Source: a virus
Taxonomy: Duplodnaviria; Heunggongvirae; Uroviricota; Caudoviricetes
IMG/VR virus record: IMGVR_UViG_3300012942_000032
Coordinates: 122,282-156,730 of that record
Direction: 5' to 3' (one strand)
Length of the DNA: 34,449 bases
Position 1 is the first letter of the stretch. Each line of letters opens with the position of its first letter. The translations under genes and the position numbers were made by a program. The notes below the pieces were generated by a model. That model had not been told where the DNA came from. It saw nothing but the letters and a program-made list of their open reading frames with translations, and searched no databases. Of this stretch, positions 2,652 through 6,751 are shown piece after piece.

Positions 2652-3077
2652 ATGAAACTTGATGATATTTTGAAGATGATTGAAGTAGATTCAATCATCG
2701 ACAATGCTCAGCTTGACCAAGAATCGCTAAAAATCCCACAACTTCATGGTAAATATTACAAAGTATTCATAGAAGAGCTTAGAGTTCTGAAAGGATATGA
2801 TAAAGATTATAATGCTTTGAAGCGTGATAGAACAGAGTATTATTTGGGCAAATCTTCAGATGAAATCTATAAAGAAGAACCTTTAGATCAGAAGATTATT
2901 AAGCAAGATTTAGATCTTTATCTAGAAGCAGATGACAAGCTTTCAACATTGAGAGCAAAGCGTGATATGCAGAAAGCTAAGGTTGAGATGGTTGAAGGTT
3001 TCATCAAATCACTCAACAACCGAGGTTTTCAAATTAAAAATGCGATTGATTTTTTACGTTTCAAAAATGGCTTTTAA
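2652..3077 (+). CDS. uvsY: Recombination mediator UvsY
   Basis: DSIID...LDQESLKIPQLHGKY...YLEADDKL...NRGFQIKNAIDFLRFKNG; lies upstream of uvsW. Confidence 0.9.
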   Translation: MKLDDILKMIEVDSIIDNAQLDQESLKIPQLHGKYYKVFIEELRVLKGYDKDYNALKRDRTEYYLGKSSDEIYKEEPLDQKIIKQDLDLYLEADDKLSTLRAKRDMQKAKVEMVEGFIKSLNNRGFQIKNAIDFLRFKNGF

Positions 3078-3753
3078 ATCATATACTTACATCATGGGTT
3101 GGCGTCATCTTGACGTTTGGTATTATGGTGTAAGGACAGCAAATAAAGTCTCGCCTATTGAAGACTTTTGGAAAGTATATAAATCATCTTCTAAAATTGT
3201 CCATGAGTATATTGAGGCGAATGGTGATCCGGACGTATTAAGAATTCATAAAGAGTTTTCTTCTAAACAAGATGCTATAGATCATGAAAGAAAATTCTTG
3301 TCAAAAGTTAATGCTGCTCAATCTGACAGATGGTTAAACCAATGTAATGGGTATTCTGATAAAGGAGTTTTGAATCTAGAATGGTCAGATGAGCGTAGAA
3401 AGAAGTTAAGTTTAGCTATGATAGGTCGTTCGAATATGGGCGGCAAAAAGCATAGTGAAGAAACTAAAAAGAAGATGTCTGAATCCGCTTTGAATTTGGA
3501 GAAATTGACTTGTCCGCATTGTGGTAAGTCTATGGCTAAGAAATTTGCTTCCAGATATCACTACGATAAGTGCTCTGTTTTAACAGGTAAAAAGCATCCA
3601 GGAGTGATGACTGGAAGGGCTCATTCTGAAGAGTCTAAAAAGAAGATTGGTGAAGCTAATTCTAAATATATTGGAAGAAAAGCAAGCGAAGAGACTAAAG
3701 CTAAGATGCGAGAGTCTCACATAAAACGATTGACGGAAAGTTCTAAACTTTAA
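3067..3753 (+). mobile_element. Free-standing GIY-YIG (Seg-like) homing endonuclease with NUMOD3 repeats
   Basis: Likely start ATG 3067 (MAFKSYTYI...WYYGVR...YKSSS...HERKFL...WLN); three NUMOD3-like repeats (HSEETKKKMSES, HSEESKKKIGEA, ASEETKAKMRES) and CPHCGK; overlaps the uvsY end. Confidence 0.85.
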
Positions 3754-3787: not shown

Positions 3788-5158
3788 ATGGCTGATATCA
3801 TTATTCATTATCAAAATCAAATCAAATGTAGACTAGAGTGTAGTGGAGGCATCGCATATGAAATTGCGGAGGCCTTTTCTTTTTATGTGAAGGGGTATAA
3901 ATTCATGCCCCAATACAAATCTGGTCGTTGGGACGGTCGCATCAAGATGTTTGATGTTAGAACCAGGCTATTTCCGAGAGGTCTGCTTCCTCGTTTAGTG
4001 GAATGGTGTTCTAATAATGATTATGTCATCAAGATTGATTCTGATGATAAAGCAAAATTTAGACCTCAGGTAGAGTACGACATTGCTTTCTTAGATAATT
4101 GGAAGAAATATGGAAAACTTGAACCTAAATCATATCAGAAATCATCAATTGAAACTGCGCTGAAGCAGAATCAGACATTGATCCTTAGCCCAACGGGATC
4201 AGGAAAGTCTTATGTAATCTACATGATTGTTAGATATCTTCTGGAACATACAAAAGAAGATATTCTTATCACAGTGCCTACTACATCACTCGTAGAACAG
4301 TTATACAGTGATTTCAATGATTATGCAGTGGATTGGAATGTAGAGAATTACGTCACTAAGATCTATTCTGGTAAGGAAAAGAATACTAAACACAGAGTGA
4401 AGATCAGCACATGGCAAAGTATCTACAAACTGCCCTCGAGTTGGTTCTCTAGATTTGGAGCTTATATCTGCGATGAAGCACATGGTGCAGATGCAAAGTC
4501 TATTAGTTCTATTGTAGATAAAATTCCTGATGCTCCAATCAGAATTGGATTAACAGGTACACTTGATGGTTCCAAACTCCATGAATTAGAGATGCTTTCT
4601 AGATTTGGAAATCTATTTGTTGCAGCGACAACAAAAGATCTTATGGATTCAGGCGATCTTGCAGAACTTGATATCAGATGTCTAAAGATTAGATATTCTG
4701 ATGATGACGTAAAATTGGTTAAGAGTTTAGACTATCAGGGAGAAATAGATTTCTTGGTTTCTAACGAAAGACGAAACAATGTTTTGGTTAATGCTGCTTT
4801 GAATGAACCCAAGAATGTGCTAATGCTGTTCAATTTTATTGATAAGCATGGTGCAAAATTGTATGATTTATTGAAAGCAAAGGCAGATCAATACAATAAG
4901 AAGATCTACTATATCCATGGTGGCATTGAAGTAGAAGATCGAGAAAGAATCAGGCAGCTTTTGGAGAAAGAGAATCCTATTGTTGCAAGAGAAATTGAAT
5001 TTGATGGTTTTTCTTTGCGAATACCTTTAGGTACTCAAATTCAATTATCAGATAAGTCGTTTAAACCTGTTGATAAAATAAATATGTTTGATGACATAGA
5101 CGATGATTGGATTTCTGATGCGAGAAAGAATAAAAAGTTTATTGAAAGAAAAATATGA
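3788..5158 (+). CDS. uvsW: UvsW SF2 helicase, N-terminal fragment (split gene)
   Basis: YKFMPQYKSGRWDGRI, Walker A SPTGSGKS, VPTTSLVEQ, STWQS, DEAH, GLTGT; ends after RERIRQLLEKE plus a ~60-aa extension, without motifs V/VI. Confidence 0.93.
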   Translation: MADIIIHYQNQIKCRLECSGGIAYEIAEAFSFYVKGYKFMPQYKSGRWDGRIKMFDVRTRLFPRGLLPRLVEWCSNNDYVIKIDSDDKAKFRPQVEYDIAFLDNWKKYGKLEPKSYQKSSIETALKQNQTLILSPTGSGKSYVIYMIVRYLLEHTKEDILITVPTTSLVEQLYSDFNDYAVDWNVENYVTKIYSGKEKNTKHRVKISTWQSIYKLPSSWFSRFGAYICDEAHGADAKSISSIVDKIPDAPIRIGLTGTLDGSKLHELEMLSRFGNLFVAATTKDLMDSGDLAELDIRCLKIRYSDDDVKLVKSLDYQGEIDFLVSNERRNNVLVNAALNEPKNVLMLFNFIDKHGAKLYDLLKAKADQYNKKIYYIHGGIEVEDRERIRQLLEKENPIVAREIEFDGFSLRIPLGTQIQLSDKSFKPVDKINMFDDIDDDWISDARKNKKFIERKI

Positions 5159-5936
5159 TTTAGATTTTTCTGAATATGTAGATTGGTGCCTAGATAGGAA
5201 TTATGAAGGTGATGAATATTCTGAAAATCATCATATTTTACCTGTATGTGAATTTCCAGAATATTCAAAATGTGAATGGAACATTATTACATTAAAATAT
5301 TCTGATCATAAAACTGCCCACATAATCCTTGCAGAAATTTGCCCTATCAGAAAATTTGTGAGACCGCTCAATTGGTTTAGTAGAGAAAAACATTCAGAAT
5401 TACTTTCCATAGCAACTAAGAATTCATGGATTGAATTCAAAAAGAGTAATTCTTATGATGGATGGAGAAAAATAAGATCTGAACATGCTAAAACTCAATC
5501 TAAAGATAGAATGTCAGAGATGAGTAAGAAAAGACATTCTAATCTACCTGAGGGCTATATCTCTAATCATTTTAAGACATTATGGAAGGATCCTGAGTAT
5601 AGAAAATCTTTGACAGAGAAGATTTCTAGATACAGAAAATCTGAAGAGGGAAGAAAAAGGGCTTCTGAATTGTCTAAGGAAATGTGGAATAAAAGAGATG
5701 ACGAATTTAGAAAAAGATTTTCGGAACAAATGTCTCAAATAAATCAAGATCCAGCATCAAAAAAGAAAAATTCAGATAAACAAAAAGAAAGATGGGCAGA
5801 TCCTTTCTACAGAGAAAAACAAATAGAAATTAGACGATCTAGGAATTATCATTGGTACAATGATGGTAATAAAGAGCTAAAATCCCAAGAATGCCCTGAA
5901 AATTTTGTAAAGGGTAGATTAAAGAGAAGAAAATGA
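5118..5936 (+). mobile_element. HNH (Mob-like) homing endonuclease inserted within uvsW
   Basis: YSENHHILP...WNIITLKYSDHKTAHIIL is the Mob-type HNH core; long basic helical region; C-terminal WYNDG...CPENFVKGR. Start is either ATG 5103 or 5118; stop overlaps the ATG of the uvsW 3' fragment (ATGA 5933-5936). Confidence 0.85.
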
Positions 5937-6271
5937 AACCTAAAAGAATTAAGGAGATTGAAGGCGCAAGTATTTTACTTGCGTCGTATTAGTAAGGAAC
6001 ATTCTCAACAGGTCTAAATGTTAAGAATCTACATACGGTGATATTCTGTCATCCATTCCAAGCTAAGATTAAAAACCTTCAATCAATAGGTCGAACAATT
6101 CGTGTGTCCGCTGGGAAAGACAAAGCAACATTGATTGATATTGCAGATGATCTAGTCTACAAGACAAAGAAAGGTGTAGAAAAGATCAATACTACAATGA
6201 AGCATTTTATTGAACGTCTAAAGATTTACCAAAGCGAAAGATTCACATACAAGATCATAAATCTGTCTTAA
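5933..6271 (+). CDS. uvsW: UvsW C-terminal fragment interrupted by in-frame TAG TAA (5990-5995); recoded or pseudogenised
   Basis: Single frame from ATG 5933: MKPKRIKEIEGASILLASY**GTFSTGLNVKNLHTVIFCHPFQAKIKNLQSIGRTIR...DIADD, matching T4 UvsW IIVASYGVFSTG...LQTIGRVLR. The ORF track only catches it from GTG 6038. Confidence 0.85.
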
Positions 6272-6296
6272 CAAACGATTCACAAGAAGGTATAAT
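6268..6296 (+). promoter_or_regulatory. Sigma70-type promoter
   Basis: TTAACA (6268-6273), 17 nt, TATAAT (6291-6296), directly upstream of ATG 6302. Confidence 0.7.
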
Positions 6297-6301
6297 AAGA
6301 T

Positions 6302-6751
6302 ATGACAGAAGAGAATTTACAAGAAGAACAACTGTCTCAGGTACAAGAAGATCTTGTTGATGATTTGCCTGGTTTGATCAAATTATTCCATTTGGTAAAT
6401 GGCGAAGTAATCATTGCTACCGTTGAATCATATACAAGTGAATTTGCTCTTGTTTGGAGAGCTTACACACTTCACAGAAGTTATGATGCGATGGGGAGCC
6501 TTTTAGGTTTTGATATGAAACCTTATCTATCTGATTTGATAGATGATGACGAAATTGTTCCTTTGAATCTAAAGTTGGTCTTGTCTGTAGTTCCTCCGTC
6601 GATGGACCTGATGAAATATTACATTGCCTCGAGTCTTATTCCAGAAGAACTCTTAGGTGACGAAAATTTTGATGAGTCAGGTGCTGAGGATCTTCTTCAA
6701 GAAGAAGAATTTAAGACTGAGCAAGGTGCAAAGAAGCGCACCTTGCATTAA
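6302..6751 (+). CDS. Hypothetical protein, possible Sm-like fold, conserved upstream of gp55 in T4-like phages
   Basis: IKLFHLVNGEVIIA...PY...YY pattern; acidic termini. Confidence 0.55.
   Translation: MTEENLQEEQLSQVQEDLVDDLPGLIKLFHLVNGEVIIATVESYTSEFALVWRAYTLHRSYDAMGSLLGFDMKPYLSDLIDDDEIVPLNLKLVLSVVPPSMDLMKYYIASSLIPEELLGDENFDESGAEDLLQEEEFKTEQGAKKRTLH

Follow-up and report, generated by a model that had tools for sequence, protein, structure and literature searches.

A split uvsW gene interrupted by two stop codons

We analysed a 34,449-nt stretch of viral DNA (IMG/VR record IMGVR_UViG_3300012942_000032, positions 122,282 to 156,730), hereafter the window, in which the helicase gene uvsW is split by a homing endonuclease gene and its downstream part is interrupted by two adjacent stop codons, TAG TAA, that ribosomes probably bypass. 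Positions are window coordinates unless a locus identifier is given. The window holds the gene block uvsY, uvsW, gp55, gp47 and gp46 of a T4-like phage whose genome is represented by a single contig of 156.7 kb. The uvsW locus comprises the following features.

3788..5158, + strand: uvsW N-fragment, 456 amino acids (aa), with the N-terminal domain and helicase motifs I-IV (Pfam UvsW_N, ResIII, DEAD)
From roughly 4982, + strand: C-terminal extension (CTE) of the N-fragment, ~57 aa, common to ~12 clusters of ~456-aa N-fragments
5103..5936, + strand: gene for a free-standing Mob-type HNH homing endonuclease, 277 aa (phrog_12434 at 3e-19, phrog_655)
5933..5989, + strand: 19-codon mini open reading frame (mini-ORF), consisting of an N-terminal extension (NTE), MKPKRIKEIEGA, and a homologous motif V replacement, SILLASY
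5953..5956, + strand: Shine-Dalgarno-like GGAG (AAGGAG at 5951-5956), 6 nt 5' of the hairpin, invariant in 10/10 gapped alleles
5963..5985, + strand: 5' hairpin of 10 bp with one G-U pair and a UUU loop (arms 5963-5972 and 5976-5985), 1 nt 5' of the take-off codon
5987..5989, + strand: proposed take-off codon TAT (Tyr), the final sense codon before the stop
5990..5995, + strand: coding gap TAG TAA (TAG 5990-5992, TAA 5993-5995), not in intact relatives; TAA is the proposed near-cognate landing triplet
5996..6271, + strand: uvsW C-fragment, 91 codons and a stop, with the rest of motif V, motif VI and the C-terminus; it opens with GGA 5996 and ends with TAA 6269-6271

The N-fragment aligned to residues 2-400 of T4 UvsW, and the ~57 aa beyond this alignment constitute the CTE, which is not in T4. 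The insertion site in the host gene lies just before helicase motif V. Across 5103-5158 the HNH gene and the CTE overlap in different frames, and the TGA of the HNH gene overlaps the ATG of the mini-ORF at 5933 (ATGA). The endonuclease shows 28% identity to MobC-type genes of T4-like phages and 36% to the endonuclease occupying the same slot of the related locus L023.

Translation from ATG 5933 yields 19 sense codons, MKPKRIKEIEGASILLASY, ending in ILLASY; directly after the two stops the frame reads GTFSTG, its translation beginning GTFSTGLNVKNLH. An earlier interpretation of this DNA (the original prediction) had placed TAG TAA precisely between ASY and GTFSTG, with no in-frame start until GTG 6038. 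Both statements were confirmed: when the mini-ORF and C-fragment were aligned with T4 UvsW (PDB 2oca), residues 398-497 were covered and the sole gap fell exactly at the two stops, and GTG 6038 is the next in-frame start.

The closest intact relative of the window, L022, reads ...TCT TAC GGC ACA... at this point, with no insert. Homology between the two is lost after EKE(N/D) and picks up again at GGA 5996; in between, the extension, the endonuclease, the NTE, SILLASY and TAGTAA stand in place of the parental (D)NCILLASY. The replacement SILLASY is identical at 16 of 21 nt to the parental-type CILLASY of L022.

A family of gapped alleles

Relatives were found by protein search with the N-fragment, and contigs were examined for nine truncated forms and for one locus obtained from a DNA pattern. 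The relatives were of three kinds: ordinary UvsW proteins of ~495 aa without the insert, the closest being P0002 with 81% identity; ~12 clusters of ~456-aa proteins ending in the same extension as the window protein; and ~12 clusters of ~573-aa fused proteins, in which the CTE lies in frame within the same ~75-aa segment just before ILLASYG. Nine further uvsW alleles, from independent metagenome assemblies and different sequencing projects, carry a stop-initiated insert exactly at the ASY/G junction. The ten gaps and their take-off codons are as follows.

TAGTAA, 6 nt: window; take-off TAT
TAGTTAA, 7 nt: L023, L098, L113, L115; take-off TAT
TAGCTAA, 7 nt: L024, L112; take-off TAT, TAC in L112
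TAGCTAG, 7 nt: L111; take-off TAT
TAGCTTAG, 8 nt: L025; take-off TAT
TAACTC, 6 nt: L026; take-off TTC

With lengths of 6, 7 (seven alleles) and 8 nt, the gaps use all three frames, and the sequence resumes at the Gly codon of ASYG in 10/10 alleles. A stop stands in the zero frame after the take-off codon in every allele (UAG in nine, UAA in L026). In nine of the ten, a stop directly upstream also closes the landing frame; in the 7- and 8-nt alleles this is a TAA or TAG abutting the Gly codon. Every allele has a mini-ORF of exactly 19 codons, and its take-off codon, TAT, TAC or TTC, always specifies the residue that precedes Gly in intact UvsW. The final gap triplet is UAA or UAG in nine alleles and CUC where the take-off codon is UUC; in all ten it equals the take-off codon at two of three bases and is never a cognate codon. 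The re-pairing from UAU to UAA that the original prediction envisaged for the window would thus fit the family as a whole.

Because the insert at the ASY/G junction begins with a stop, gene callers missed the C-fragments in the relatives' contigs, leaving them uncalled or calling them only from an internal start. A gap at the same junction in nine more independent assemblies rules out sequencing error and chance to the extent possible without raw reads. A protein of 93 aa from a 42.7-kb JGI contig, P0232, has the called N-terminus LRPIRY-GTFSTG, which corresponds to the common hairpin 3' arm followed by TAT TAG in the +1 frame. Read from the protein N-terminus alone, it hints at a 7-nt gap, TAGGTAC, that would end in a cognate Tyr codon.

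Other routes to further alleles returned little. A pattern search for the hairpin gave no match in IMG/VR, one real match among 82 in JGI metagenomes (L098) and none real among 42 in GTDB genomes; neither the HNH endonuclease protein, as a query of IMG/VR, nor the window C-fragment alone found a match, and a profile search returned mostly contig-end fragments of full-length genes. Among deposited phages, DNA matches were limited to 60-73% identity with Stenotrophomonas, Xanthomonas and Synechococcus phage helicases, and no deposited phage had the CTE or the cassette, nor did any cultured phage among those searched have the element. A genome-wide heuristic scan for a hairpin, a stop and a start-less ORF recovered only the uvsW site, the one other match being an ordinary gene leader.

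Putative RNA signals at the gap

The 10-bp hairpin just upstream of the stops, which had been pointed out in the original prediction, was borne out by folding: alone it has a predicted energy of -13.9 kcal/mol, and in 66 nt of context its z-score is -3.4, with 0/200 shuffles folding as well. The 33 nt before the take-off codon were then compared with the equivalent region of 21 ungapped alleles. All ten gapped alleles form a hairpin of -13.3 to -16.0 kcal/mol, versus -0.6 to -8.5 kcal/mol in the 21 ungapped ones, and its 3' end lies 0-1 nt before the take-off codon in every gapped allele. The conserved hairpin is wholly 5' of the take-off codon; the gap itself is too short for a stem-loop, and no conserved structure was found 3' of the gap in the ten alleles.

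A 40-nt block spanning GGAG, hairpin, take-off codon and stop is 60-100% identical between alleles at the nucleotide level (mean 85%), versus means of 68% for the first 120 nt after the gap and 62% for the 17 nt before the block. Between L025 and L111 the block is identical at 40/40 positions, with 66% identity in the C-fragment DNA and 28% of residues identical in the CTE. At conserved residues, third codon positions are invariant in 3/7 mini-ORF codons versus 0/19 downstream (Fisher p ~0.014), and the third positions that do vary within the mini-ORF are all synonymous. GGAG is kept in 10/10 alleles although the residue at codon 7 is K, R, T or E; with the hairpin folded, it lies 5-6 nt 5' of the stem base, a distance suited to anti-Shine-Dalgarno pairing. 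One stem pair covaries between A-U and G-C among the gapped alleles, and in the window the upper stem has been rebuilt in a new register at the cost of two amino-acid changes.

Selection on the C-fragment

In each of the ten gapped alleles, 91-99 codons follow the gap without interruption up to the natural C-terminus. Further lesions in this part of the gene, which the original prediction had associated with a plain pseudogene, were looked for in the relatives and none was found. Pairwise comparison of the post-gap ORFs gave pN of 0.01-0.35 versus pS of 0.24-0.97, with synonymous sites mostly saturated; examples are L024/L112 (pN 0.044, pS 0.60) and L098/L113 (pN 0.009, pS 0.24). Between the window C-fragment and that of L022, the proteins are 99% identical, with pN of 0.014 and pS of 0.80. 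Within the first 14 codons after the gap, the ten alleles have no conserved ATG, GTG or TTG, and the window has none at all. The comparisons therefore point to a start-less downstream ORF that is under purifying selection and is probably translated.

The age of the arrangement can be judged from the rest of the cassette. Divergence of the CTE tracks that of the helicase core (24-65% identity), so that the cassette is old in these lineages and selection postdates the gap. Six gapped alleles are without the endonuclease and one has a frameshifted copy. A clade of five endonuclease-less alleles (L024, L112, L098, L113 and L115) has diverged to pS of 0.6-0.9 with gap, hairpin and ORF all kept. The co-divergence of the CTE, the endonuclease losses and this diverged clade argue against a fresh invasion of healthy genes. 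In L026 (3801-4690) the endonuclease occupies two frames, as pieces of 219 and 90 aa, and the gap, hairpin and C-fragment are intact; this allele looks like an intermediate in endonuclease decay.

A proposed programmed hop and its alternatives

Comparison of the alleles makes it likely, in our view, that production of the second half of uvsW involves a programmed hop in which peptidyl-tRNA-Tyr moves 6 nt, from UAU to UAA. Whereas the anatomy of the site, its conservation and the selection on the downstream ORF are read directly from these alleles, we infer that a hop takes place, what the hairpin and GGAG do, which triplet serves for landing and that the gap confers immunity. Several points weigh against such a hop. 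The evidence for it is comparative and drawn entirely from uncultured phages. The triplet proposed for landing is near-cognate at best and is itself a stop codon, and known spontaneous +6 hops are inefficient. Covariation in the shared lower stem is weak, being confined to one pair, and four of seven pairs never vary; since most stem positions are invariant, formal covariation support is modest. The ten alleles share ancestry, and the association of hairpin and gap therefore does not represent ten independent events. The window's nearest relatives (81% identity) carry no cassette, so that its intact C-fragment alone is no proof of selection after the gap arose. Finally, uvsW is not essential in T4, and a dead gene could therefore persist for a while.

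This dispensability, the two consecutive stops with no start codon just after them, and the cassette-free closest relatives would all suit a gap that kills the second half, leaving no functional UvsW and a C-fragment that is an undecayed pseudogene after recent endonuclease invasion. MobA-type insertions are indeed often recent (bioRxiv 10.1101/2022.08.31.505936). We nevertheless regard a pseudogene as unlikely: the ten gapped alleles, mostly saturated synonymously, show no second lesion and have pN far below pS, the CTE has co-diverged with the core, the six endonuclease-free alleles have kept gap, hairpin and ORF, and the hairpin and GGAG are constrained at the nucleotide level. Stop readthrough, a suppressor tRNA, an alternative genetic code or an assembly error would be compatible with the in-frame 6-nt gap of the window, though with the window alone. 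Gaps of 6, 7 and 8 nt in all three frames exclude readthrough, suppression and a single +1 or -1 frameshift, ten independent assemblies agree, TAA and TGA end neighbouring genes normally, and recoded stops were rejected because no suppressor was found among the 24 tRNAs of the genome. The probability left to this group is close to negligible.

Separate initiation of the C-fragment after the gap, by termination-reinitiation or from a non-canonical start with the Shine-Dalgarno-like TAAGG, would make the mini-ORF a coupling leader. TAAGGA or TAAGGT follows the first stop in 7/10 alleles, and the start of the mini-ORF is coupled to the endonuclease stop through ATGA. We think reinitiation quite improbable all the same, since the first 14 codons contain no conserved in-frame ATG, GTG or TTG and L026 lacks a Shine-Dalgarno-like sequence there. 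The product would also miss motif V's ILLASY strand, a strand that is preserved at the protein level in the mini-ORF (synonymous changes only), and the mini-ORF always ends at exactly the residue preceding Gly. Removal or neutralisation of the 6-8 nt in RNA, for example by cleavage and ligation beside the hairpin, would leave ordinary translation sufficient. A conserved hairpin does abut the gap, T4-like phages commonly encode RNA repair enzymes, and variable gap length fits such removal as well as it fits hopping. No mechanism is known, however, for precise excision of 6-8 nt; the gap has no conserved structure on its 3' side, there is no Rfam match and no group I intron in 4700-6400, and the near-match between take-off codon and final gap triplet would have no role, all of which makes RNA-level removal very improbable.

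Proposed mechanism of the hop

For the programmed hop, we propose a pathway that leans on the phiHau3 terminase case discussed below and on the proposal that pairing of the exiting mRNA drives forward bypassing (bioRxiv 10.1101/2024.12.09.627546). Ribosomes would start at ATG 5933, decode the 19 codons and pause with UAU and peptidyl-tRNA-Tyr in the P site and UAG (UAA in L026) in the A site. Instead of terminating, they would slide 6 nt, the tRNA would re-pair with the near-cognate UAA through the first two bases, and decoding would continue from GGA. The expected product is a fragment of 110 aa with the native ...ILLASYGTFSTG... motif V and the junction peptide ...EGASILLASYGTFSTGLNVK. At take-off, the 3' arm of the hairpin would lie inside the ribosome, with the 5' arm and loop already emerged, and refolding of the hairpin at the mRNA exit could draw the message ahead by 6-8 nt. 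Pairing of the invariant GGAG with 16S rRNA may set the landing register. The two protein halves would then associate non-covalently through the CTE and NTE, which jointly would form a small Hint-like domain.

The original prediction also saw, in the basic segment MKPKRIK at the start of the mini-ORF, a loose echo of the gene 60 nascent-peptide signal. This idea found no support; the segment more closely resembles the opening strand of a domain, apparently an intein relic, that would hold the halves together.

Cassette association and decay

The order within the cassette is CTE, Mob-type HNH endonuclease, NTE, homologous replacement segment and gap. The gap is present only in split alleles (0 of ~180 unsplit uvsW loci), and no stop lies near the junction in the 21 ungapped and 160 further IMG/VR uvsW loci. 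The original prediction had proposed examining whether the gap co-occurs with the HNH gene in related genomes; among the alleles compared it goes with the split architecture, and six gapped alleles have lost the endonuclease.

A gap is absent from some split alleles (L027/L028, L183 and the proteins P0123 and P0130/P0133); these read contiguously ...ILLASY-GT... and have weaker hairpins. P0123 is close to the gapped L115 and is contiguous, from which it follows that precise loss of 7 nt yields the protein that the hop would produce. The alleles compose a decay series in which the endonuclease is intact, frameshifted or lost, the gap is lost, and the halves are re-fused. The IMG/VR locus L183 (~1480-1830) holds a marine-type uvsW that is split and has an NTE beginning MKPDKV..., with no gap and no strong hairpin; the split architecture is therefore wider than the gap-carrying clade. 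By analogy with MobA, the inserted bases probably also spoil the endonuclease target.

The extensions as a putative intein relic

To describe the extensions as a unit, we turned to the fused homologs. In an AlphaFold model of one of them (pLDDT 88.9), the insert is built from four strands, a helix and a strand leading into the motif V strand, and the split point of the divided alleles falls in the loop before the last strand of the insert. When the insert domain was modelled alone (pLDDT 74.5) and compared with 48,161 PDB representatives, 20 of the 22 top matches were inteins or Hint domains, with low Z-scores. The best were PI-PfuI (Z 5.5, rmsd 3.8 Å over 66 residues), the gp41-1 intein (Z 4.8) and the NrdJ-1 split intein (Z 3.9), and AlphaFold DB clusters agree with these matches. 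Sequence-based routes gave nothing comparable: a HMMER search with the CTE alone against 1.8 billion representatives returned two spurious matches, one of them a PYRIN-repeat protein, and a Pfam scan of the insert domain had no match.

Together the extensions amount to ~70-75 aa, about half a Hint domain. Across the alleles, the CTE and NTE have no conserved N-terminal nucleophile, no TxxH and no HN before the junction; the +1 residue is C, T or S in the fused forms and the window, and Ala in most gapped alleles. Protein splicing is therefore not expected, and an active intein was rejected on the absence of splice residues and the out-of-frame position of the endonuclease. A group I intron was likewise rejected, as an Rfam scan of 4700-6400 with E up to 10 gave only noise and no Intron_gpI, and the flanks are protein-coding extensions conserved in the fused homologs. 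The models suggest that the CTE and NTE are probably an intein relic whose present role would be confined to docking the two UvsW halves, a role that may be likened to that of the CTE and NTE tails of split nrdA and of gene 39/60.

Seven full-length UvsW proteins of 571-596 aa (P0057, P0064, P0068, P0069, P0096, P0100 and P0118) retain the Hint-like insert of ~75 aa, in frame and ahead of motif V. Two origins are considered for them: secondary fusion of split alleles, or an ancestral state in which a degenerate intein has been kept as a domain.

Relation to known bypass systems and split genes

Efficient natural bypassing is so far known mainly from T4 gene 60 and its homologs, yeast mitochondrial elements and one candidate in a Streptomyces phage. 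The MobA element of T4 was reportedly treated by Bonocora et al. in 2011, as cited by Manning and Atkins. In T4 gene 60, a 50-nt bypass lies within this HNH element (Manning and Atkins, bioRxiv 10.1101/2022.08.31.505936), and the same 2022 survey terms the gene 60 cassette unique, without mention of uvsW. Our full-text literature search for a link between uvsW and bypass returned replication-fork papers only.

The uvsW locus parallels gene 60/MobA closely in layout. In both, a Mob-family HNH gene splits a conserved gene of DNA metabolism, an in-frame CTE on the first ORF overlaps the endonuclease out of frame, and the second ORF consists of a unique NTE, a replacement of the deleted host codons and a stop-initiated gap ending at or next to the landing codon. 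UAG after the take-off codon and a conserved Shine-Dalgarno-like element are shared as well, as are the routes of decay, in which the endonuclease is pseudogenised or lost with the gap kept, the gap is lost with the split kept, or the halves undergo secondary fusion. The differences lie in the host gene, uvsW rather than the topoisomerase large subunit (Toprim site), and in the signals. The uvsW gap measures 6-8 nt rather than 20-50; the hairpin is wholly 5' of the take-off codon, with no take-off stem-loop in the gap; GGAG is upstream of the hairpin and not in the gap; and landing would be near-cognate (UAA or UAG for Tyr) and not on matched codons of one tRNA. The uvsW NTE has ~12 aa, versus 44-45 aa, both uvsW extensions have the look of intein remnants, and the uvsW case has so far been described from sequence. 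The alleles in three frames, the gap-specific hairpin, the invariant GGAG, the purifying selection and the MobA-like layout lend comparative support to the original prediction, which saw the site as a small and independent version, in a different gene, of the gene 60/MobA bypass.

In signals, a closer parallel may be the large terminase gene of the Streptomyces phage phiHau3, which has 10-nt gaps with a 5' stem-loop and a Shine-Dalgarno sequence, and for which the bypass junction peptide was found by mass spectrometry in E. coli (PMC10732093). Both are phage genes with a short gap (~10 nt in phiHau3), and both have a 5' stem-loop and a flanking internal Shine-Dalgarno sequence as proposed stimulators. 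The phiHau3 gene is essential, and mass spectrometry identified bypassing and not +1 frameshifting (PMC10732093). Unlike in uvsW, take-off there depends on UUA, a rare codon that is a stop in the variant tested, and a regulatory role is proposed for it; neither an endonuclease cassette nor a split gene has been described, and the host belongs to another phylum.

The arrangement of the halves also recalls the fractured genes of Dassa et al. (2009, PMC2677866), in which a split intein, along with a free-standing homing endonuclease, lies between gene halves. As in these, the halves of uvsW keep their original order and locus, and the stop of the free-standing endonuclease between them overlaps the downstream start; a Hint-like fold is also suggested for the extensions by the models, and C, T or S after the insert in the fused forms and the window is a further likeness. 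In contrast, the uvsW extensions make up about half a Hint domain without splice residues, and fractured genes have no coding gap. To judge from the predicted fold, the uvsW split resembles a decayed fractured gene.

The hop as such has a simple precedent. Weiss et al. in 1987 reportedly observed spontaneous +5 and +6 tRNA hops over a stop in E. coli, which are said to have been low-level and to have occurred in synthetic contexts with matched codons. As would happen in uvsW, the peptidyl-tRNA detaches from a sense codon, skips a stop and pairs again a few nt downstream regardless of frame; unlike those sites, the uvsW site is natural, conserved and flanked by dedicated signals.

The principle and the cassette logic, then, are known; the novelty lies in the host gene, in a gap that is very short and varies in frame, in a set of signals confined to the 5' side and in the proposed near-cognate landing on a stop triplet. 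If the hop is real, it would be a second endonuclease-linked bypass, in another gene and with simpler signals: 19 codons, GGAG, a hairpin, a stop, 0-2 spacer bases and a UA-purine triplet. Such a compact system would suit detailed study of how forward sliding is powered by mRNA that refolds where it exits the ribosome, would indicate that landing can use near-cognate stop triplets, and would support the repeated evolution of bypass cassettes as self-protection by homing endonucleases. Annotators would also be warned, as such genes are miscalled as pseudogenes or left uncalled, which was the case in most contigs examined. The apparent intein ancestry of the extensions would link three ways in which genes survive endonuclease invasion: inteins, split genes with tails, and bypass.

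More broadly, these alleles may define a minimal class of bypass, in which a 5' hairpin and GGAG act as spring and ruler for a move of 6-8 nt onto a stop-like near-cognate triplet, the whole riding as the 3' end of an endonuclease cassette on an intein relic. Short hops would then be a general and recurrent device by which selfish endonucleases tag conserved motifs and yet leave the gene functional. We hold the case for and against this broader reading as a whole to be evenly balanced.

Further endonuclease slots, and tRNA and predicted tmRNA genes

The gene block has further slots for homing endonucleases. In the window, a second free-standing homing-endonuclease-like ORF of 228 aa (3067-3753, + strand) separates uvsY from uvsW, overlapping the end of the former; its sequence contains three NUMOD3 motifs and matches phrog_314. 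This slot is polymorphic: L022 lacks an ORF at this position, and one contig of the close relative P0002 has a NUMOD3 ORF of 219 aa. SegE-like GIY-YIG ORFs with faint Pfam matches occur in L023 (7466-8146) and L026 (5983-6371), located between the gp55-like gene and gp47. The same position is empty in the window and constitutes another polymorphic endonuclease slot of the block.

The 24 tRNAs encoded by the phage genome include tRNA-Tyr(GUA) and tRNA-Phe(GAA). Adjoining the tRNA cluster, outside the window, ARAGORN called a tmRNA gene (asterisk-marked; tag ending ...YAVALAA) at G000:C1 59838-60195 on the - strand. A phage-encoded tmRNA could bear on the handling of stalled or terminating ribosomes.

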